Shown here piece after piece: positions 41,737 to 53,515 of a stretch of DNA of 64,000 bases (position 1 is the stretch's first letter; the number at the start of each line of letters is the position of its first letter). The notes beneath the pieces are model-generated. The model saw only the letters and a list, made by a program, of their open reading frames with translations, did not search any database and was not told where the DNA came from. The position numbers and the translations under genes are program-made. The stretch is from Patescibacteria group bacterium (GTDB lineage: Bacteria > Patescibacteriota > Patescibacteriia > Magasanikbacterales > GWA2-37-8): positions 64,001 to 128,000 of the forward strand of contig SCQK01000014.1 in assembly GCA_004321885.1 (NCBI GenBank), read 5' to 3'.

Positions 41737-41861
41737 GTTAATTAGCTCATTCTATCTTAACAGATTATAATTTTTTGTCCATAATTGACATTTTCGCTAT
41801 TTTTTTCTATAATAGTTGTCATTCCGGACTTGATCCGGAATCCAGCTCCTTTGAAAATAAA

Positions 41862-41905
41862 TTCCGGGGTAGCGCTCCGCCAGCCGGCGGAGGTAGCGCA
41901 GTTGG
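41862..41905 (+). pseudogene. truncated tRNA-Asn-like 5' fragment with 17-nt hairpin insertion
   Basis: UCCGGGGUAGCGC equals tRNA-Asn positions 1-13. Then the hairpin UCCGCCAGCCGGCGGAG. Then GUAGCGCAG, which matches tRNA-Asn 17-25, before the sequence diverges into the GIY-YIG ORF. Confidence 0.5.
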
Positions 41906-42156
41906 CTGTGTATACTGTTTACGCTATTTACAATCAAAAAAACGATAAAATTTATATTGGACAAACAAAAGACATGGCCGAACGATTAAGGTTGCATAAT
42001 GAAAAAATCCTTCTTGGTTATACTTATAGATTTGATGGAAATTGGAAATTAATTTATAGTGTACAGATCGAGAATAGACAAAAAGCTTTACAAAGAGAGA
42101 GACAACTTAAAAGTTTTAGAGGCAGAGAATTTATAAAACAATTTATTCCGGGGTAG
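41902..42156 (+). CDS. small GIY-YIG nuclease family protein (COG2827/YhbQ-like), TTG/GTG start
   Basis: VYTVYAIYNQKNDKIYIGQTKDMAERLRLHNE (GIY-YIG..R..HN) and a downstream Glu (RERQLK). GGAGGT Shine-Dalgarno sits 7 nt before the TTG at 41902. The stop TAG lies inside the first 10 nt of tRNA-Asn. Confidence 0.65.
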   Translation: MAVYTVYAIYNQKNDKIYIGQTKDMAERLRLHNEKILLGYTYRFDGNWKLIYSVQIENRQKALQRERQLKSFRGREFIKQFIPG

Positions 42157-42218
42157 CGCAGCGGTAGCGCAGAGGACTGTTAATCCTTTGGTCGTGGGTT
42201 CGAATCCCACCCCCGGAG
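42147..42218 (+). tRNA. tRNA-Asn(GUU)
   Basis: Acceptor UCCGGGG/CCCCGGA, D-arm GCGC-AGCGGUA-GCGC, anticodon stem GAGGA/UCCUU with loop CUGUUAA, T-arm GUGGG-UUCGAAU-CCCAC, discriminator G. Confidence 0.85.
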
Positions 42219-42220
42219 CA

Positions 42221-42350
42221 AAAACAAAAATACTGGTAATATCCAGTATTTTTGCTTTTGCTCGGAATACACGAAAAAATACGAACGGATTTGGGCGAAT
42301 TTTAGGGCGCGGGCGAAATTCCCTCCCCACACCCCTTCCTTTCGCCCGCG
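42221..42350. repeat. left ~130-bp inverted repeat (includes tRNA terminator hairpin AAAAATACTGGTAATATCCAGTATTTTT)
   Basis: About 88% identical to the reverse complement of 47421..47550. Confidence 0.7.
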
Positions 42351-42528
42351 AAGCGAAACGGGGGCTCTGGTGGACAAAAACTGCCAAAGAACCCGTAAAA
42401 AATGTCGGCCGAACTTTATGTTGGCCAAAAGCAAACTTTTCTCTTTGATATTGAATTACGATTGTTAAAGTGATATAATCAAGTCAATGAGCGTCCCATT
42501 CTTGCTATCTTATGTATACTATCATACT

Positions 42529-42735
42529 ATGGAAGAAAAGAAAACAATCGGCGAAAAAATAAAAAAATGGAGAGCGAAGAAAGATTTGACACAAGACGCC
42601 TTGGCAAAAAAGGCGGATATTCCATATAGCACGATTGCTAAAATTGAATCAGATGTTATTACGAGGCCAACAATACAGACAGTGCAAAAGCTGGCCGTTG
42701 GTTTGGGTATAACACTTGATGAATTATTAAAATAG
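42529..42735 (+). CDS. XRE-family HTH transcriptional regulator (candidate RM controller C-protein)
   Basis: KIKKWRAKKDLTQDALAKKADIPYSTIAKIE is an HTH_XRE. 68 aa. Directly upstream of the MTase. Confidence 0.7.
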   Translation: MEEKKTIGEKIKKWRAKKDLTQDALAKKADIPYSTIAKIESDVITRPTIQTVQKLAVGLGITLDELLK

Positions 42736-42736
42736 T

Positions 42737-43618
42737 ATGGTTAAAGGTCACAAAGTGAAAAATGAAAAAATCGATAAAAAAATAGCTTTTGGTTGGTATG
42801 GCGGTAAGTTTAGTCATCTTGACTGGCTTTTGCCGCTGTTGCCGGAAACCGATCATTTTTGTGAGCCGTTTGGTGGCTCTGCTGCCGTTATCATAAACAG
42901 AAATCCTTCTTTAATCGAAACATATAATGATTTAGATGGCGAGGTAGTTAATTTCTTCAGAGTATTAAGGGAACATCCTAACGATCTTATAAGACAAATT
43001 GGGCTTACTCCATTTTCGAGGGAAGAATTCAAATATGCTATTGAACACGAAGATGATAAAAATCTTTCAGATATTGAGAGGGCTAGGTCTTTTTTTATCC
43101 GCGCAAGGCAGGTTAGGACTGGACTTGCTCAAAAAGCTACTTCTGGTAGATGGGCAAATTGTAAATTAACTTCCAGAGCCGGAATGTCAGGTGCGGTCTC
43201 GAGGTGGTTGGGAAGTGTTGACGGGCTAACAGAGATTGCGGAAAGGCTTTTACGAATACAAATTGAAAATGCTCCTGCAATTGAAGTTGTAAGGCGATAT
43301 GATAGCCCACAGACCTTATTTTACTGTGATCCTCCGTATACACATGATTCTCGAGGTGATATAAATGCCTATAAATTTGAAATGGACAGGGATGCGCATG
43401 TCGAACTGGCCGAAACACTAAAACAGGTTAAGGGGTTAGTCGCTATATCGGGTTACGACTCTCCCCTAATGAACGAGCTGTATCAAGGATGGAAAAAAAT
43501 CGCTGGGCCAGTAAAAAATGCAAATTCTATACAACAACCTAGACAAGAAATTTTATGGGTTAATTATAATATTAATGATAAATCTTTATGGAAAAAGCAG
43601 CAAAGATCCTTGATATAA
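42737..43618 (+). CDS. DNA adenine methyltransferase, Dam/D12-class (N6-adenine)
   Basis: Motif I FCEPFGGSAAV. Motif IV FYCDPPYT (DPPY). Confidence 0.85.
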   Translation: MVKGHKVKNEKIDKKIAFGWYGGKFSHLDWLLPLLPETDHFCEPFGGSAAVIINRNPSLIETYNDLDGEVVNFFRVLREHPNDLIRQIGLTPFSREEFKYAIEHEDDKNLSDIERARSFFIRARQVRTGLAQKATSGRWANCKLTSRAGMSGAVSRWLGSVDGLTEIAERLLRIQIENAPAIEVVRRYDSPQTLFYCDPPYTHDSRGDINAYKFEMDRDAHVELAETLKQVKGLVAISGYDSPLMNELYQGWKKIAGPVKNANSIQQPRQEILWVNYNINDKSLWKKQQRSLI

Positions 43619-44709
43619 TTTTGAAAAAAACTAATGGGCATCTAGAAAAACCTTTTATAAAAAATAGGGAGATTTTGCGGAAAATAGAATTTATTTCTCA
43701 TAATATTCAAAATCGAGCCGGCGTCCGCCTTATTATGTCTTGCTTACTGGCGAAACTTGACGATCCAAAAGTTGATGTAAGAAAACCTTATACGGAGATT
43801 GGCAGTCGTGATAGTTTTTCGGGCAGAACATATGACGAGGCCTATGTCGGCAGTTTTATCACTAAACATCACTTGCCGTGTAATCCAACAACAGCGTTTT
43901 TGACGCCAGCTCTACGTAATAGAAATATTGTACTTACGCCAAAAGTAAATTTAGTCGGCAGGCCACCAGAAATTTATCAATACGTTCTCGACCTCCTAGA
44001 ATTAGTATTTAAAGGATTTCTTGCCCCAGCCATTCTGCTTGCGGAAATAATGCGACAACTTGTTCTTTTACGAGATGAAAATCAAAAACGTATAAAATCT
44101 TTGTTAAAGAATCTCGGGAAAAATGGTAGTGTGCCTCTTTCGGGTGAAGACATAATAAAACTTATTGAGCAACATTTAAATTGCAAAGGAGCCAGCAGAC
44201 TTCCCGTACTTATCGTGGCCGCTGCTTACAACACTATTGGAAATTTCATCCAAGAAAAAGTATTACCTATCTTTTCTCACAATTCTGCAGATAAACAAAC
44301 TGGTGCGCTCGGCGATATACAAATTACGTTAATTAATGACGAGAATGTAGTAACTAGTTATGAGATGAAGATGAAGAAGGTCACAAAGGACGACATTGAT
44401 ATCGCTCTGCAAAAAATTTCGGGAGTTAAGTACAAAATAGATAATTATATTTTTATAACGACGGATATAATAGATGATTCGGTAAAAGAATATGCGAAAT
44501 CACTTTATGAGCAAACCGGCGGAATAGAGATAGTTGTCTTAGATTGTATTAGTTTTCTTAGGCATTTTATTCATTTATTCCACCGCTTCAGATTGCCATA
44601 TCTTGAAGAGTATCAAAAGTTGGTGATGGGTGAAGCAGACAGCGCGGTCAGTCAGCCCCTTAAAGAGGCATTTCTTGCTCTTCGACAGGCAACAGAAAGC
44701 GCGAATTAA
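43588..44709 (+). CDS. putative type II restriction endonuclease (PD-(D/E)xK-like)
   Basis: Overlaps the MTase 3' end. Candidate GD...(17 aa)...EMK motif (ALGDIQITLINDENVVTSYEMKMK). Confidence 0.45.
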   Translation: MEKAAKILDIILKKTNGHLEKPFIKNREILRKIEFISHNIQNRAGVRLIMSCLLAKLDDPKVDVRKPYTEIGSRDSFSGRTYDEAYVGSFITKHHLPCNPTTAFLTPALRNRNIVLTPKVNLVGRPPEIYQYVLDLLELVFKGFLAPAILLAEIMRQLVLLRDENQKRIKSLLKNLGKNGSVPLSGEDIIKLIEQHLNCKGASRLPVLIVAAAYNTIGNFIQEKVLPIFSHNSADKQTGALGDIQITLINDENVVTSYEMKMKKVTKDDIDIALQKISGVKYKIDNYIFITTDIIDDSVKEYAKSLYEQTGGIEIVVLDCISFLRHFIHLFHRFRLPYLEEYQKLVMGEADSAVSQPLKEAFLALRQATESAN

Positions 44710-44802
44710 TGCAATAAAATAGTAAAAATGCAACCTTTTTCGGTGTGCGACGTTATATTATTGGGAGCTAAATATGACGATTATTAAAAAGTGTTTATCT
44801 TT

Positions 44803-45447
44803 ATGGATATTGAAGCCGAAAAAGAACAAATCGTGAAGGCCCAAAGTAATATCAAGGAGTTTGCGCCTTTATTTGATGAATATTACCCCCAAATACTTAA
44901 ATATTTAATAGGGCGTATCCGCAGTGTGGAAATTGCCCAGGATATTGCATCTGTTACATTCTTGAAAGCCTTAGAGAATATAAAAAAATTTAACTGTCGG
45001 GGGATTAGCATATCATCGTGGCTGTACCGAATAGCTACGAACGAGGTCACTACATATTTTAGAAAAAATAAAACCCTTTCACTCGATGAGATAAGGGCAT
45101 GTGAAAATTTTGATCCGCCCGCTATCGGCAACCCGTACATTGAAATTGTCCAGGCGCAGGAAAAAATTGAAAATGATAAAAAATTTTTGAATCTACAAAA
45201 TGAGATTCTAAAATTACATATAAATTATCAAGAAGTCATAATGTTGCGATATTTCGAGAAAAAACAAATAAATGAGATAGCAGAAATTTTAAATAAAAGC
45301 GAGGGGACGATTAAATCTCTCCTCCATCGAGGTTTGAAAAAATTAAAAAAAAATTTTCAACTACACAACAGTGACGCCAGAACGCAACCTTTTCAAAATA
45401 AAAACGTTCTAAATATAGAACAGGTACTAGTACCCATAAAATTATGA
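44803..45447 (+). CDS. ECF-type RNA polymerase sigma-70 family factor
   Basis: Region 2 (WLYRIATNEVTTYFRK) and region 4 HTH (EVIMLRYFEKKQINEIAEILNKSEGTIKSLLHRGLKKLK). Confidence 0.75.
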   Translation: MDIEAEKEQIVKAQSNIKEFAPLFDEYYPQILKYLIGRIRSVEIAQDIASVTFLKALENIKKFNCRGISISSWLYRIATNEVTTYFRKNKTLSLDEIRACENFDPPAIGNPYIEIVQAQEKIENDKKFLNLQNEILKLHINYQEVIMLRYFEKKQINEIAEILNKSEGTIKSLLHRGLKKLKKNFQLHNSDARTQPFQNKNVLNIEQVLVPIKL

Positions 45448-45686
45448 ATGACCTACAGGAGTTAGAAAAAATGTTAGAGGAGATCGAGGTTCCGTCTGTG
45501 GACTTAAATATAAATAAGGAGTTGTTGAAGAGTTACCTATTTAGAAATGAGCGGGTTGAATTTGAGAGCAGCAAACAAGATAACTCCATATTTGCCCCGC
45601 AGTTTGAATTTTTACCTTGTCCGTCATTTACGTATGATTATTTAATTAATGATTTTAATTCAACTACATATGTCCTTAGTTATTAA
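45444..45686 (+). CDS. small hypothetical protein, translationally coupled to ECF sigma (candidate anti-sigma/partner)
   Basis: ATGA start/stop overlap with the sigma gene. 80 aa. Confidence 0.4.
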   Translation: MNDLQELEKMLEEIEVPSVDLNINKELLKSYLFRNERVEFESSKQDNSIFAPQFEFLPCPSFTYDYLINDFNSTTYVLSY

Positions 45687-46632
45687 TGTAACCACACCCG
45701 AAGGAATTGTGTTAGCAGCTGATAGTCGTCAAAGCTACCGCAACCAAAAAGGCGCAGCCCGTATAGGCAGCGATAACGCTTCGAAACTGTTTAAATTAAA
45801 CGACCGGATAGCTGTTGCAGCTACAGGCATGGCCTTTTTACCTGAAAAAGGAATGCTTAAAAATATAAGTAAATTTATAGAACAATTTAAAAAAATTGAA
45901 ATTGAAAAAATAGAAAATATATCAGTTAAGGAAACGGCAGAAAAAATTCATGAATATTTCAAAAGTATATACAAAGTAGAAGACCAGATAAGGGCAATTG
46001 AGCAGCAAATTACAAATGATATCGCAAAAAACGGGGGTAAAATATTGAGAACAGACGCTAAAAAAAATATAGTTATTGTAGAGTTTGAAGATGCAAATGG
46101 GAAAAAAGGTGTTGCCAACGTAGTTCTGGAGCCCTTGAATTTCATGGTGGCTGGTTTTAATAGCAATTTCGATTCGCACGAGGTTTACACGTGTAGAATA
46201 CCGGGGGGGATAGAATTAAAAAGAAATAGTAGCGTGGATAATAAAGAGTATGGCGCCTCGTGGGAAGGGCAAAATGATGTGGTAGCGCGAATTGTCTTGG
46301 GTTTTGATCCTAGGATAGGGAATATAAAATTTGTACAAGAAGCAGCGGAAAAAATTGGGAAGGATCAAATTAATGAACAGCTTAGAAATTTAGAATACGC
46401 AATACAATGGGGCACCATGACTTTGCAAGATGCTATCGACTTTTGTGTGTTAATTATAAAAACAACCTCAGCCATTCAAAGATTTTCGGATGGCATTAAA
46501 GCTGATCCTGGTGCAATCCCTGGCGTGGGCGGCTCCATCGATGTGGTGGTCATCAGACCAGAAGAGGGGTTTAATTGGGTAAGTAAAAAGAAGTTATCTA
46601 TCAATGAAAATTGTTCAGAAATAAATTTTTAA
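45670..46632 (+). CDS. proteasome beta-subunit/HslV-like Ntn-hydrolase family protein with C-terminal extension
   Basis: MSLVINV-TTPEGIVLAADSRQS...SKLFKLNDRIAVAATGMA aligns with the 20S-beta TTIVG..GVVLAAEKR...RKIFQIDDHIGCAMSGLA (Thr1, Asp/Glu17, Lys33). Confidence 0.5.
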   Translation: MSLVINVTTPEGIVLAADSRQSYRNQKGAARIGSDNASKLFKLNDRIAVAATGMAFLPEKGMLKNISKFIEQFKKIEIEKIENISVKETAEKIHEYFKSIYKVEDQIRAIEQQITNDIAKNGGKILRTDAKKNIVIVEFEDANGKKGVANVVLEPLNFMVAGFNSNFDSHEVYTCRIPGGIELKRNSSVDNKEYGASWEGQNDVVARIVLGFDPRIGNIKFVQEAAEKIGKDQINEQLRNLEYAIQWGTMTLQDAIDFCVLIIKTTSAIQRFSDGIKADPGAIPGVGGSIDVVVIRPEEGFNWVSKKKLSINENCSEINF

Positions 46633-46656: not shown

Positions 46657-47301
46657 ATGAAAAAACCTCTTTATATAATGCTCCATCACTCGGCTGTTTC
46701 ATACGACAAAAATCCAGATCAATTTGATGCAAATAATAATTACCATAAAGCACAGTGGAATTTTAAAGGTTCCCTTGGTTTTTATCTTGGTTACAATTAC
46801 GAAATATCTAAAACCGGCCTGACACGACAAGCCCGAGCAGACGGTGAAGTTACGGCAGCATGCTATCAAAAAGATATGAACGATGGTAGGTGTATACATA
46901 TTTGTATGGATGGCCACTTCGATCAAGAAAAACCAACGCCAGAACAAATAGAGGCGTTAAGAAAATTGCTAAAACAAAAATTCGAGGAGCACAATATCAA
47001 AAGAGAGAACTTAATTTTTCATAGGGATTACGCCCCTAAAACCTGTCCGGGGTCTAATTTAGACATAAAAAATATTCGCGATCTTGCCACACCGGAAGGC
47101 AATGAATTGTACGCAGCCGCATTGACGCTTATGAAAGAGAATAATTCACCAGCTATTTACTTTTTCGGTTTTGATAATATGTGGCACGGACTTGGGGATA
47201 TGGATATTTTAAAATCATTAAAAGGAAACTATAATCCAGTAGAAATAATGAAAGTAGAAAATCTCCCTGATAATATTTCATTTTCAATAGGCAAACAATA
47301 A
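46657..47301 (+). CDS. N-acetylmuramoyl-L-alanine amidase, Amidase_2/PGRP (phage T7 lysozyme-like)
   Basis: Zn-ligand pattern LHHSA...HRDYAPKTCPG. 214 aa. Confidence 0.75.
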   Translation: MKKPLYIMLHHSAVSYDKNPDQFDANNNYHKAQWNFKGSLGFYLGYNYEISKTGLTRQARADGEVTAACYQKDMNDGRCIHICMDGHFDQEKPTPEQIEALRKLLKQKFEEHNIKRENLIFHRDYAPKTCPGSNLDIKNIRDLATPEGNELYAAALTLMKENNSPAIYFFGFDNMWHGLGDMDILKSLKGNYNPVEIMKVENLPDNISFSIGKQ

Positions 47302-47420: not shown

Positions 47421-47550
47421 ACCGCGGGCGGAAGGAAGGGGTGTGGGGAGGGAATTCCGCCCGCGCCCTAAAATTCGCCCAAATCCGTTCGTATCTTTTC
47501 ATAAGTCCCGAGCAAAAGTAAAAATACTGGTAATATCCAGTATTTTTTGT
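47421..47550. repeat. right ~130-bp inverted repeat (inverted copy of 42221..42350)
   Basis: CCGCGCCCTAAAATTCGCCCAAATCCGTTCGTAT...AAAAATACTGGTAATATCCAGTATTTTTT. The hairpin loop is retained in the same plus-strand orientation. Confidence 0.7.
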
Positions 47551-47573: not shown

Positions 47574-48197
47574 ATGCTTGGCCTGACAAAATCCGAACTG
47601 AAAATTTTAAAAAGACTCAACACGCCCATAAAAATTCAGAATTTTTTGGATACCTTTCCGATAAATTGGGAAAAGAAAGGCGAGACATACATGTCGCCCG
47701 GCCGGTCGCTTGGCGCGCGCAAGATACATTGTTTTGAGGGCGCGCTTTTGGCGGCCGCGGCTTTGTGGATAAACGGCGAACAGCCGTTGCTTTTAGACCT
47801 AAAAGCCAAAGGCGACTTTGACCATGTGGTGGCGCTGTACAAACGAAACGGCTATTGGGGGGCGATAAGCAAAACCAATCACGCCACTCTGCGTTGGCGC
47901 GACCCGGTGTATAAAACCCTGCGTGAGCTGGCCGTGTCGTATTTCCACGAATACTTTGACAACAAGTTTTACAAAAAACGCCTGGTCAGTTTTTCCCGGC
48001 CGTTTAACTTAAAAAAATACGGCGCCAAGTGGATGGCGGCCGAAGAAGACCTGCACGAGCTGGTGGATGCTTTGGACCACTGCCCGCACGAAAAAATCTG
48101 CCCGCCCAAAAACGCGAAATATATCCGCCGGGCGGACAAAATGGAGCGTCGCGCCGGCCGGCTGATTGAGTGGAAAAAATCTCATCCGCGTACTTGA
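47574..48197 (+). CDS. hypothetical protein (possible Cys-His hydrolase fold, weak)
   Basis: 207 aa. HCFEGALLAAAAL...DHVVALY motifs. No confident family. Confidence 0.45.
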   Translation: MLGLTKSELKILKRLNTPIKIQNFLDTFPINWEKKGETYMSPGRSLGARKIHCFEGALLAAAALWINGEQPLLLDLKAKGDFDHVVALYKRNGYWGAISKTNHATLRWRDPVYKTLRELAVSYFHEYFDNKFYKKRLVSFSRPFNLKKYGAKWMAAEEDLHELVDALDHCPHEKICPPKNAKYIRRADKMERRAGRLIEWKKSHPRT

Positions 48198-50638: not shown

Positions 50639-53515
50639 ATGCCTAAGAGAAAAAAGAGGGATAGACGCGTAAGGTACGCGTTTTTGGCGATAGTTTTGTG
50701 TTTGGCCGCGGGCGGTGCCGGCGCGGCCGTGTATTTAACATCAAAGGCCAGTTCGGCGAATTTTAGCGCGCAAATTTACGGCGCGGTTTCGCCGCGATTA
50801 AACGTTATAGACGTGGATTTTTTGCGCGACAATAATTTGAAGTTCACGCAGGACAAAAAAACCAATTTCGTGCGCTCGCTTTCGGCCCTGGGCCAGCCCA
50901 TTCCTTTAAGCAAAGGAAATTTGGTCAGCGACTTGGCGGTCAGCAATCAATTTTTGAAAGACTACGCGCGCTTTTTCGGAGTGGGCGACAGCAAACAACT
51001 CATACTGCATTCGTCCAAGAAAGACGAGCTGGGGCTAAGTCACATAAAATACCAGCAAAAAATCGGCGGGGTGCCGGTGTTTGGCGCACAGATGCTGGTG
51101 CACGTAAAAGAGGACCTGTCCGTCAATTCAGCGGCCGGCAAACTATTGGCCAATGTTTCCATCAATACCAATCCCAAAATCACGGGGCGCGCGGCCGGCG
51201 ACGCGGTGAAGCGTTCGTGGCAAAAGAGCGACAAGGCGCCCAAAGTTTCGGCGGGCAAGCTGTATATTTTCAACAAGAACCTTTTGGACGCTCGGTTTGA
51301 AAATAAAAATCATCTAACCTGGGAGATAAAGGCCGTGGACGCGGATTCGGGCTTTTCCGAAACCTATTACATAGACGCAACCAGCGGAGCAATTTTGCAG
51401 AAAATTTCCAATGTCAAACAGATTAGCCGTCGGATTTTTAATTGCGGCAACAATCGCAACCGTACTACCTGCCGAAACATGCTGGGCGCCGCGGCCAGCC
51501 GGGCGCAAAACGACCGGGCCGAGGGCTGGGCCGCCGCGGGCGTGGCCGAGGTTGACAACGTCTATCAAATGATGAACCAGGCGCATAATTATTTTCAAAA
51601 CACCTTTGGCATAGACGGCGCCAACGGCCGCGACGGCATTGGCGACAACACCGACGGCCATCCGCGCACCTCCACCGACGTTTATGCTGATTGGCTTATC
51701 CCCGCCAGCTGGGGTTTTAATTGTCCCAATTCTTTCTTTTTCGAAAACAAGCTGATGTTCTGCAACAACACGGTCAATCTGCCGGTGGTGGGACACGAAT
51801 ACATGCACGGCGTGGCGCACTTCAACGGCCCGCCCCTCACTTACGCCTACGAGTCCGGCGCCATTGAAGAGGCCAATGCCGACATCTTTGGCCAGGCCCT
51901 GGAAAATGCCGTGACCGGCTCTTCCAGCTGGCGCATCGGCCCCACTGGCGGAAATCTGTGGCGCAATATCGTCAATCCCGCTTCGCTCAATGACCCGGAC
52001 CGGTTTTACAGCAACAATTTTTATTGCGGAGATAATGACGAGGGCGGGGTGCACAACAATTCCAATGTCATTTCACACGCCGCGTATTTGCTTGCCACCG
52101 GCGGCAGTTTCAACGGCTGTTCCATAGACAGCATCGGCCAAAACAGAATGGAAAGAATTTTCTACCGCGCCCTGACAGTTTACCTCACGGCCAGTTCGGA
52201 TTTCAATGATTTGTACGACGCGCTGGACAATGCCTGCGGCGACCTGTATTCCGACGCGATTTGCGCGCAAGTGCGCCGCGCCTTGCAGGCCGCGGAAATA
52301 GACCAGCCCGGGCGATGCAGCGGCACAGCGGCCGCGCCCAAGCCAACCTGTTTTCCGCCGTATATTCTTTCGGTGTCGGCGAATGCCGGGCATTATCGGG
52401 CCAATCAAAGTATTACATTGAGGTTTAAGTTTTCCAAGCCCGTGCGCACGGCCGGCGCCGTGGATGTGTTCGCGGTCTTAAACGGCCGCACGGCCGAAAA
52501 AATTTGCTCCCTTGATTTGAGCTCGCGCGCCGACGACGTGTCATGCTCGTTTAAGGTAAATGACGGCGACAGCGGCCGTCTGCGCGTGGACAGAATTGAG
52601 TGGGATGTCAAGAGGCCGATTTTGGACGCTGATTCAAGCGAGCTTACCGATATGGTGCCGGCCGAGCAGTTTCCCAAGGGCGACGTGATTATAGACACCG
52701 CCAAGCCAACCGGAAGCGTTACCATCAATAGCGGGGCTAAAACCACGGCCAGCCATATAGTGGAGCTGGCGCTAAGTTCAAACGACGACAAAGCCGGGTT
52801 GCTATACCGCGTTTCCAACAACGGCGTCAGTTACAGCCGTTGGGATGATTTTGCGGCAACGACGTCGTGGAATTTGTACAACGCGGACGCGGGCGGCGGG
52901 GTGTTTCCCACCACCAACAGTGGATATCCGCGCACGGTTTATGTTCAGTTCAAAGACCAGGCCGGCAATGTTTCCGACACGTATTCGGCCAATATCACCT
53001 TTAGCCGGCTGACGATTTTAATAGAAGAGCCGGCGCAACTTGCGGTTCCAACTTCATCACAGCCGAATGGCGCGAATCTCCTACTCAATATTCCCCCCAG
53101 CGCCCTGACCATCCCCGGCGTCAATGTTACAGTTACGCAGACAAGCGCGGTGGTTCTGCCGCAGATTTCCACGACCACTGTCAATTTGAATCCGGCGATT
53201 TCTTCTTCGCTTATTGATGTTGTCAGTGTTCCGGATTTCACGATTTCCGTAAAGCAGGGCGGGCTGACAACATATTTGAGCGGCGCCATAAATTATTGGG
53301 GCAAGGGGGCAAAATGCGAGGGCCCGCGAACTTATGACGCGGTAGTAGCGAACTGGGGCGATGGCGCATCAGCCAAGCCCGCGCGCAAGGATAAAACATT
53401 CTATGCTTCGCATACTTACGCCAAGACCTTTGGCTCGTACAAGATTTTGGTAAAGGTTTACAACAGTTGCGGTGGCAGCGCGAGCAAATCTTTGTACGTA
53501 AAGCCGCAGATATAA
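50639..53515 (+). CDS. M4 family (thermolysin-like) zinc metalloprotease with N-terminal propeptide and C-terminal extension domains
   Basis: HEXXH VVGHEYMHGVAH plus downstream GAIEEANADIFG (third Zn ligand Glu). Signal anchor. 958 aa. Confidence 0.85.
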   Translation: MPKRKKRDRRVRYAFLAIVLCLAAGGAGAAVYLTSKASSANFSAQIYGAVSPRLNVIDVDFLRDNNLKFTQDKKTNFVRSLSALGQPIPLSKGNLVSDLAVSNQFLKDYARFFGVGDSKQLILHSSKKDELGLSHIKYQQKIGGVPVFGAQMLVHVKEDLSVNSAAGKLLANVSINTNPKITGRAAGDAVKRSWQKSDKAPKVSAGKLYIFNKNLLDARFENKNHLTWEIKAVDADSGFSETYYIDATSGAILQKISNVKQISRRIFNCGNNRNRTTCRNMLGAAASRAQNDRAEGWAAAGVAEVDNVYQMMNQAHNYFQNTFGIDGANGRDGIGDNTDGHPRTSTDVYADWLIPASWGFNCPNSFFFENKLMFCNNTVNLPVVGHEYMHGVAHFNGPPLTYAYESGAIEEANADIFGQALENAVTGSSSWRIGPTGGNLWRNIVNPASLNDPDRFYSNNFYCGDNDEGGVHNNSNVISHAAYLLATGGSFNGCSIDSIGQNRMERIFYRALTVYLTASSDFNDLYDALDNACGDLYSDAICAQVRRALQAAEIDQPGRCSGTAAAPKPTCFPPYILSVSANAGHYRANQSITLRFKFSKPVRTAGAVDVFAVLNGRTAEKICSLDLSSRADDVSCSFKVNDGDSGRLRVDRIEWDVKRPILDADSSELTDMVPAEQFPKGDVIIDTAKPTGSVTINSGAKTTASHIVELALSSNDDKAGLLYRVSNNGVSYSRWDDFAATTSWNLYNADAGGGVFPTTNSGYPRTVYVQFKDQAGNVSDTYSANITFSRLTILIEEPAQLAVPTSSQPNGANLLLNIPPSALTIPGVNVTVTQTSAVVLPQISTTTVNLNPAISSSLIDVVSVPDFTISVKQGGLTTYLSGAINYWGKGAKCEGPRTYDAVVANWGDGASAKPARKDKTFYASHTYAKTFGSYKILVKVYNSCGGSASKSLYVKPQI

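Follow-up and report, generated by a model that had tools for sequence, protein, structure and literature searches.

Which role does a proteasome-like protein play when its gene stands alone in an ultra-small bacterium, behind a sigma factor gene and with no alpha-subunit gene in the surrounding 64 kb? The question is raised by a 64,000-nt stretch of contig SCQK01000014.1 (assembly GCA_004321885.1, positions 64,001 to 128,000; hereafter the window) from a Patescibacteria group bacterium, which encodes a predicted N-terminal nucleophile (Ntn) hydrolase of 320 amino acids (aa). A first-pass annotation had read this gene as a proteasome beta-subunit/HslV-like hydrolase. We find that the hydrolase belongs, as a stand-alone protein, to the proteasome (T1) superfamily of Ntn hydrolases (PF00227/MEROPS T1). 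The best overall explanation, to which we give a probability of roughly 0.6, is that it is a serine-nucleophile, specific peptidase of the type 'Proteasome homolog with Multiple Insertions' (PMI) that acts on a partner encoded in its own operon.

The open reading frame (ORF) proposed by the first-pass annotation, 45670-46632, is exact, and both peptides quoted from it, MSLVINVTTPEGIVLAADSRQS and SKLFKLNDRIAVAATGMA, are present in the translation. The deposited counterpart, TAN32715.1 ('hypothetical protein EPN28_04335 [Patescibacteria group bacterium]'), is also 320 aa long and identical. The in-frame ORF extends further 5' to 45649; we place the start at 45670, where the product begins with MSLVIN, because 36 of the 37 homologs in our family alignment open with M-S-L and the deposited protein has 320 aa.

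Fold and predicted active site of the hydrolase

PF00227 matched the hydrolase with an E-value of 1.5e-5 and 25.2 bits (gathering score 22.4), covering aa 6-55 only, and the archaeal beta-subunit model of NCBIfam, TIGR03634, matched aa 5-97 with an E-value of 1.3e-5 and 24.9 bits (equivalog cut-off 224). Sequence-only searches of the PDB, with the single sequence and with a profile, gave weak matches (E 0.1 or worse), and a fold comparison was therefore needed. The AlphaFold2 (AF2) model, built from the 37-sequence alignment, had a predicted local distance difference test score (pLDDT) of 71.8 and a predicted template modeling score (pTM) of 0.72. When Foldseek was run with this model, all of the 50 best PDB matches were 20S proteasome subunits, with E-values from 6e-6 to 1e-3 and alignments spanning the whole protein. 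The predicted structure contains the alpha-beta-beta-alpha sandwich core (S1-S10, H1-H4), and the resemblance to the proteasome is far beyond chance. The first-pass annotation had named the lack of a significant family hit, or of this sandwich in a predicted structure, as grounds to abandon its proposal; with the Pfam match above threshold and the core in the model, the proposal of a proteasome-family Ntn hydrolase stands.

Seven columns are invariant in the family alignment, M1, S2, L3, D18, K39, T52, and G53, and the blocks of highest invariance (aa 19-39, 193-215, and 267-288) are predicted to lie around the active site. We aligned the hydrolase by hhalign with the mature beta subunit of T. 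acidophilum, whose C-terminal match coordinates agree with those of the PDB profile search. This alignment placed D18 on E17, K39 on K33, and G53 on G47, and its ungapped extension brought Ser2 onto Thr1 and T8/T9 onto positions 7-8 in the S1-S2 hairpin. The predicted catalytic set is intact and serine-type, with Ser2, Asp18, Lys39, and Gly53 as the equivalents of Thr1, Asp/Glu17, Lys33, and Gly47. The first-pass annotation had identified the Asp17 and Lys33 equivalents correctly. It had also taken the TT at residues 8-9 for Thr1/Thr2, behind a 7-aa leader that would be cut autocatalytically at NV|TT. Those residues align with beta positions 7-8, and the Thr1 equivalent is Ser2, directly after the initiator Met; this register leaves no room for a 7-residue leader or for processing at NV|TT, and the protein is predicted to have no propeptide.

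Methionine aminopeptidase would remove Met1 and leave Ser as the free N-terminal nucleophile. We infer this excision because Ser2 favors the aminopeptidase and because HslV and connectase are precedents. In HslV (ClpQ), a bacterial proteasome homolog, removal of the initiator Met exposes the nucleophile and there is no long propeptide; in classical beta subunits a propeptide is removed by autolysis, exposing Thr. The predicted nucleophile of the hydrolase would, as in HslV, be bared by loss of the initiator Met. The nucleophile of the M. jannaschii connectase is Ser1 (PMC7980362), and across proteasome homologs the nucleophile of the triad may be Thr1 or Ser1, propeptides being found in beta subunits and HslV only (PMC8665760).

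The same register is seen well beyond the family. We searched 1.84 billion cluster representatives for the wider superfamily, which gave 1,382 matches at E <=1e-3, and analyzed 118 representatives. A Ser or Thr lies exactly 16 residues ahead of the conserved Asp in 116 of the 118; this residue directly follows the initiator Met in 90 (46 Ser, 44 Thr) and is internal in 26, typically after a Gly or Ala that ends a signal-peptide-like or propeptide-like leader. Position 2 is a Ser in 118 of the 119 close homologs. In P0161, P0168, P0172, P0213, P0250, P0251, P0255, P0256, and others, the end of the leader, ...A|T or ...G|T, coincides exactly with the position of the nucleophile, which suggests that the distant relatives with leaders may be secreted or classically processed versions of the proteasome-like clade.

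Internal insertions and the closest known relatives

A C-terminal extension of ~100 aa, part of the first-pass annotation, is not borne out. In the AF2 model the core ends with the strands at aa 290-296 and 300-304, beyond which there is a short disordered tail and no C-terminal domain; the extra ~100 aa are, in this model, two internal insertions (Table 1). Insertion 1 is composed of H103-120, E124-131, E134-140, and E146-152, with a pLDDT of 85-93, and many relatives of ~270 aa hit the family profile in two pieces, without positions ~77-150. Insertion 2 contributes the helices H214-217, H220-229, and H231-247 and is flanked by H198-209 and H252-273. The model has no insertion between S3 and S4.

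A catalog of 22 new families of proteasome homologs (Fuchs, Alva and Lupas, Bioinformatics 2021, PMC8665760) includes the PMI, which were defined computationally and whose types occur in 'other bacteria' and Euryarchaeota. According to this catalog, PMI-2 to PMI-6 have an H3/H4 insertion, and only PMI-5 and PMI-6 have one in S3/S4; PMI-3 is found in 'other bacteria' and Euryarchaeota, with 28 sequences at 90% identity that reduce to 11 at 70% (its Table 1). The hydrolase family, of ~320 aa and highly conserved, most likely matches the PMI group, and within it PMI-3. It has in common with both PMI-3 and PMI-4 a beta-like core with the Thr1/Ser1-Asp17-Lys33-Gly47 set, the lack of a propeptide and of an associated AAA+ ATPase, a long insertion after H1/H2 at the pore-loop site, and an H3/H4 insertion without one in S3/S4. 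The spread over bacteria and Euryarchaeota and the strong conservation, to which the reduction from 28 to 11 sequences points, are shared with PMI-3.

Better known relatives fit less well. The hydrolase differs from the 20S beta subunit (MEROPS T1A; PF00227; TIGR03634) in its predicted Ser nucleophile, in having no Gly-1|Thr1 site, and in its ~100 extra residues; its TIGR03634 score lies far below the equivalog cut-off, and the 64-kb window contains neither an alpha-subunit gene nor a paralog of the hydrolase. It is also not a compact subunit of ~175 aa without insertions, like HslV, and there is no hslU AAA+ unfoldase gene next to it; the first-pass annotation had noted the missing HslU-type partner, and no ATPase gene indeed adjoins the hydrolase gene. 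In Anbu a long helix at the C-terminus, H5, makes up a coiled coil between ring layers (PMC8665760); such a helix is absent from the AF2 model of the hydrolase, which ends in the two strands and the short tail. Connectase (DUF2121; Fuchs et al., PNAS 2021, PMC7980362) is monomeric, carries Ser1/Thr1 at its mature N-terminus, and recognizes KD|PGA in one partner. It is without H1/H2 and carries two inserted helices between S3 and S4, neither of which applies to the hydrolase, and is nonetheless the closest parallel in function for an enzyme that is specific and ATP-independent.

Upstream partners and competing explanations

We compared 86 loci with a simple ORF caller and BLAST clustering. The loci of the three closest homologs (L006, L007, and L008; 72-74% identity) have the order sigma gene, 80-aa ORF, hydrolase gene, with the sigma orthologs at position -2 and the same 17-nt overlap as in the window; the restriction-modification genes and the amidase of the window are not shared by them. 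Among 5.8 billion proteins the 80-aa ORF has a family of just four, each encoded between the sigma and hydrolase genes; the three from outside the window are 39-43% identical to the window copy. Its product matched no family in any of the libraries scanned, and we regard it as a candidate anti-sigma factor or substrate. At ~16 other loci, mostly from Patescibacteria, the upstream place of the sigma pair is taken by a co-directional gene for a LexA_DNA_bind winged-helix protein. These winged-helix partners have no S24 autoprotease domain and often carry hydrophobic C-terminal segments; the gaps between co-directional upstream genes and the hydrolase gene range from -17 to +15 nt. A metagenome search with the winged-helix partner alone (a narrow alignment) retrieved two further loci, in both of which the hydrolase gene lies 4 nt downstream. 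A DNA-binding regulator is encoded upstream in about half of the non-archaeal, non-Atribacterota loci, whereas the authors of PMC8665760 found no informative genomic context for proteasome homologs. Beyond position -1 the neighbors fall into 141 clusters with 178 Pfam families, among which restriction-modification genes recur and none dominates.

We observed two further features of the upstream proteins. A motif I-K-[TSN]-[DN]-G-T, loosely like the KD|PGA site of connectase, occurs in the variable linker of several winged-helix partners (L038:4417-5004, L075:4364-4999, L071, L072, L061, L042, L056, and L027). It was found in 8-9 of 72 upstream proteins vs 1-3 of 722 other neighbors, an enrichment that is confounded by homology among the partners. 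We rejected K-x-D-G-T as a general cleavage site, given this confounding and its absence from the 80-aa protein of the window. At L004:4161-5636 (- strand; identical to L009), a divergent gene just upstream of the homolog encodes a 491-aa fusion of LexA DNA-binding, Peptidase_S24, and N6_N4 DNA methyltransferase domains, and a PDDEXK nuclease gene lies downstream.

The idea of a regulated protease, raised by the first-pass annotation, is a reasonable hypothesis. The hydrolase would be an ATP-independent, sequence-specific peptidase (or transpeptidase) rather than a general degradation chamber, because its insertions lie at sites of ring and double-ring contact in the 20S proteasome, because there is no unfoldase ATPase, and because the loops around the active site are invariant. 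Its gene would be the third, translationally coupled member of an operon with the genes for the extracytoplasmic function (ECF) sigma factor and the 80-aa protein. Because regulators recur upstream, the substrate may be the operon partner, and the most likely role would be the cleavage of that partner to control the adjacent transcription factor. That partner would be, in the window, the 80-aa protein as candidate anti-sigma factor and, in other Patescibacteria, the linker of the LexA-type winged-helix protein.

Several points weigh against this explanation. The confidence of the AF2 model is only moderate, and pLDDT falls below 50 in aa 21-35, 192-212, and 279-288, which are the most conserved loops. 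These segments (window 45730-45774, 46243-46305, and 46504-46533) overlap the most invariant blocks of the family; low pLDDT would be expected there if the modeled loops bind a substrate or form an interface and are ordered by a partner. Ser129, Asp166, and Ser169 of the proteasome have no unambiguous equivalents in the hydrolase. The choice of PMI-3 over PMI-4 was set by the traits described for the two types (representatives OGZ26396.1 and HDY66466.1), and the activity, substrate, and oligomeric state of PMI proteins are all predictions. The four loci with the sigma, 80-aa, and hydrolase genes are from close relatives and do not count as independent observations. In Atribacterota the upstream gene encodes a tetratricopeptide repeat (TPR) protein at 10 loci and a 119-aa membrane protein at 8, and the Methanobacterium copies sit amid unrelated housekeeping genes. 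As the link to regulators is lineage-specific, the upstream regulator may equally well control the hydrolase gene rather than be a substrate of its product.

A bolder form of the specific-peptidase explanation is that the hydrolase and its upstream gene make up an unrecognized proteolytic transcription switch, in which cleavage of the partner frees or activates the transcription factor; we put this forward tentatively and consider it rather unlikely. The cleavage site would be the K-x-D-G-T linker motif of the LexA-type proteins without S24, several of which have hydrophobic C-terminal anchors, or would lie in the 80-aa candidate anti-sigma factor. ImmA/ImmR, IrrE/DdrO, and CalpL/CalpT/CalpS are switches of a protease plus a regulator, and in the last of these the protease cleaves an anti-sigma factor and frees an ECF sigma factor. 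In each, as here, a transcription factor gene lies beside that of a dedicated protease, often in mobile or defense DNA; the proteases of these switches are metalloproteases or Lon-type and not Ntn hydrolases.

A self-compartmentalizing ring protease like HslV, Anbu, or BPH is likewise doubtful, though it is the strongest of the rival explanations. The hydrolase would then be hexameric or heptameric and non-specific on unfolded proteins, without a dedicated ATPase, and the upstream genes would be incidental or would regulate its expression. The large insertions at the pore-loop site and in H3/H4 argue against this, as in the modeled orientation they would obstruct the assembly of rings and double rings (PMC8665760). 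The extreme conservation of the active-site loops across bacteria and archaea suggests a specific target, and a ring protease leaves the tight, recurrent translational coupling to DNA-binding proteins unexplained.

Improbable, though with a precedent, is a connectase-like transpeptidase or ligase, in which the N-terminal Ser attacks a motif in the partner and the amide-linked intermediate is religated instead of hydrolyzed. Connectase is the only proteasome homolog with a known specific substrate, and it shares with the hydrolase the Ser1/Thr1 nucleophile and the lack of a propeptide on the mature enzyme; the K-x-D-G-T motif of the winged-helix linkers would also fit. The architectural differences described above set the two proteins apart.

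A catalytically dead, alpha-subunit-like scaffold that only binds its partner is very improbable. The top sequence-only PDB matches are indeed alpha subunits (weak, E 0.12-0.2), and the nucleophile position holds Ser rather than Thr; the Ser/Asp/Lys/Gly set is, however, invariant in the 37 sequences, Ser or Thr occupies the nucleophile position throughout the superfamily, the AF2 model has no N-terminal H0 extension that would bury the N-terminus, and TIGR03634 (beta) outscores the alpha-subunit models. Least probable of all is a beta-like zymogen whose 7-residue propeptide is cut at NV|TT to yield Thr8 as nucleophile: T8 and T9 are ~90% conserved and classical beta subunits do mature in this way, but Thr8 stands 10 residues before Asp18 where Thr1 and Asp17 are 16 apart (a register off by 6-7), some members have Ala for T8 and Ile for T9, against an invariant Ser2, a Gly is missing at -1, the secreted paralogs bare a Thr at the position equivalent to Ser2, and propeptides occur only in beta subunits and HslV (PMC8665760).

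The island, the spread of the family, and its significance

The hydrolase gene lies in a low-GC island of 5.3 kb (37.2% GC inside vs ~50% outside) that is bounded by an inverted repeat and occupied by seven co-directional genes, for an HTH_3 protein, a methyltransferase, an endonuclease, the ECF sigma factor, the 80-aa protein, the hydrolase, and an amidase (Table 1). This agrees with the first-pass annotation, which had placed the gene in a mobile island next to an ECF sigma pair and an amidase; the island was horizontally acquired, and the hydrolase gene lies downstream of the sigma pair. The arms of the repeat are 90% complementary, and the hairpins at their outer ends are palindromic. A tRNA-Asn gene (42147-42219) directly precedes the island, and a 41-nt direct repeat created by the outer hairpins (42213-42253 and 47507-47547) overlaps its 3' end. 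Rfam has no family for the repeat arms, no recombinase is encoded inside the island, and a scan for promoters and terminators gave counts no higher than the shuffled expectation.

Table 1. Coordinates of the hydrolase gene, its predicted functional parts, and the surrounding island in the window
Feature	Coordinates	Strand	Basis
Gene for the 320-aa stand-alone proteasome-family Ntn hydrolase (PMI-type)	45670-46632	+	same as GenBank TAN32715.1
Codon for Ser2, predicted N-terminal nucleophile (proteasome Thr1 equivalent after Met removal)	45673-45675	+	alignment and hhalign register
Stretch with Asp18 (45721-45723), Lys39 (45784-45786), and Gly53 (45826-45828)	45721-45828	+	Asp/Glu17, Lys33, and Gly47 equivalents
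Insertion 1 (aa ~103-152), helix and three beta strands between H2 and S5 ('pore-loop' site)	45976-46125	+	AF2
Insertion 2 (aa ~214-247), additional helices lying between H3 and H4 of the core	46309-46410	+	AF2
80-aa ORF (overlaps: 4 nt with the sigma gene, 17 nt with the hydrolase gene)	45444-45686	+	conserved in 4 loci
ECF-type sigma-70 family factor	44791-45447	+	Pfam Sigma70_r2, r4_2; TIGR02937 86.3 bits vs cut-off 42.9
Amidase_2 (N-acetylmuramoyl-L-alanine amidase/endolysin-like), last island gene	46657-47301	+	PF01510 E 2e-16; PHROG endolysin/amidase
Restriction-modification module: HTH_3 controller-like (42487-42735), D12 N6-adenine methyltransferase (42737-43618), SacI-like endonuclease (43588-44709)	42487-44709	+	Pfam; PADLOC MTase_II E 2e-54
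Left arm of 125-nt inverted repeat, terminator-like hairpin at outer end	42226-42350	.	repeat search and blastn
Right arm of 125-nt inverted repeat, same hairpin at outer end	47423-47547	.	repeat search and blastn

The sigma gene probably starts at the ATG at 44803, judging from its orthologs. The HTH_3, D12, and SacI-like genes are arranged like a type II restriction-modification operon under the regulation of a controller protein; the methyltransferase and endonuclease ORFs overlap by 31 nt (43588-43618), and the HTH_3 stop codon abuts the start of the methylase gene. We rejected the amidase and the restriction-modification genes as conserved partners of the hydrolase. The first-pass annotation had drawn the amidase into its functional suggestion, and this link falls away, since among the compared loci an amidase gene adjoins the homolog nowhere but in this window.

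A comparable cassette is present in Magasanikbacteria (L038:1118-6264), where inverted repeats of 313 nt, 92% complementary, enclose 4.5 kb beside a tRNA-Ala gene. The cassette carries a C5-methylase fragment and genes for a NOV_C protein, a HaeII endonuclease, Vsr, a LexA-type winged-helix protein, and the proteasome homolog, and a 35-nt stretch of its repeat matches the repeat of the window at 88%. Cassettes bounded by inverted repeats are not a general feature, as they were seen only in the window and in L038; neither is adjacency to a tRNA gene, which lies within 1 kb in 10 of the 86 loci, about as expected from tRNA density.

Outside the island we noted three further items. Two adjacent repeats (window 41856-41916 vs 42140-42187, 73-79% identity) copy the 5' half of tRNA-Asn ~290 nt upstream, within an ORF (41785-42156) whose product has a GIY-YIG-like motif by eye; the half-copies may be a fragment from an earlier rearrangement. 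A 207-aa ORF just beyond the right repeat (47574-48197) had no match in Pfam, NCBIfam, PHROGs, or PADLOC. A 958-aa ORF (50639-53515) encodes a protein with an N-terminal hydrophobic segment and, by eye, an HExxH motif (VGHEYMHGV); this protein, which has nothing to do with the hydrolase, is possibly a secreted metalloprotease of large size.

The first-pass annotation had considered the gene unexpected in its lineage and stand-alone homologs rare. The family is in fact common in Patescibacteria, and the 22 families cataloged in PMC8665760 speak against rarity in general. We found 1,429 matches to the hydrolase family in the collection of 5.8 billion proteins, the best 120 of which are 314-342 aa long and 57-74% identical, and the family is present in 123 species genomes (one genome per species, 185,579 species scanned). 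The best 80 of these 123 loci were kept; they include many lineages of Patescibacteria, many Atribacterota, Omnitrophota, and Methanobacterium, with 50-74% identity to the window protein, and complete genomes are among the carriers (e.g. M. ferruginis NBRC 105197). The hydrolase had no match in IMG/VR, among INPHARED phages, or among PLSDB plasmids, its structural match to a Gordonia phage protein was marginal (E 3e-3), and we rejected the idea of phage or plasmid cargo; PADLOC gave no match to it either, and a component of a known defense system was rejected likewise.

The Methanobacterium copies are 50-57% identical to the window protein. They lie in at least three unrelated neighborhoods (L051, L054, L057, L059, and L063; L035, L058, L065, and L066; L062, L073, and L082), with neighbors that we read as a putative 3-methyladenine glycosylase together with an HhH-type glycosylase-like gene, a putative malic enzyme, and HisF-like genes. 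Such conservation between bacteria and archaea, and insertion sites that vary even within Methanobacterium, point to horizontal transfer of an enzyme under strong constraint and imply that it crossed between domains recently.

In terms of classification, the hydrolase is a routine further member of a family that is already cataloged and is uncharacterized with respect to function. The reading of Ser2 as residue 1 of the mature enzyme, with no zymogen step, decides how mutants and constructs should be designed, as an N-terminal tag would kill the enzyme. The distribution, with 50-74% identity across ultra-small bacteria, Atribacterota, and methanogenic archaea, is unusual. The coupling to regulators in many Patescibacteria provides a lead from genomic context, and with it a candidate substrate, where the 2021 survey had none. 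If the proposed switch were true, it would be the first function for any PMI-type proteasome homolog and would add a new protease class to switches of the ImmA/ImmR or CalpL/CalpT/CalpS type, carried on horizontally moving cassettes in bacteria and archaea; it might also furnish a new tool of the connectase kind, a protease or ligase with sequence specificity.

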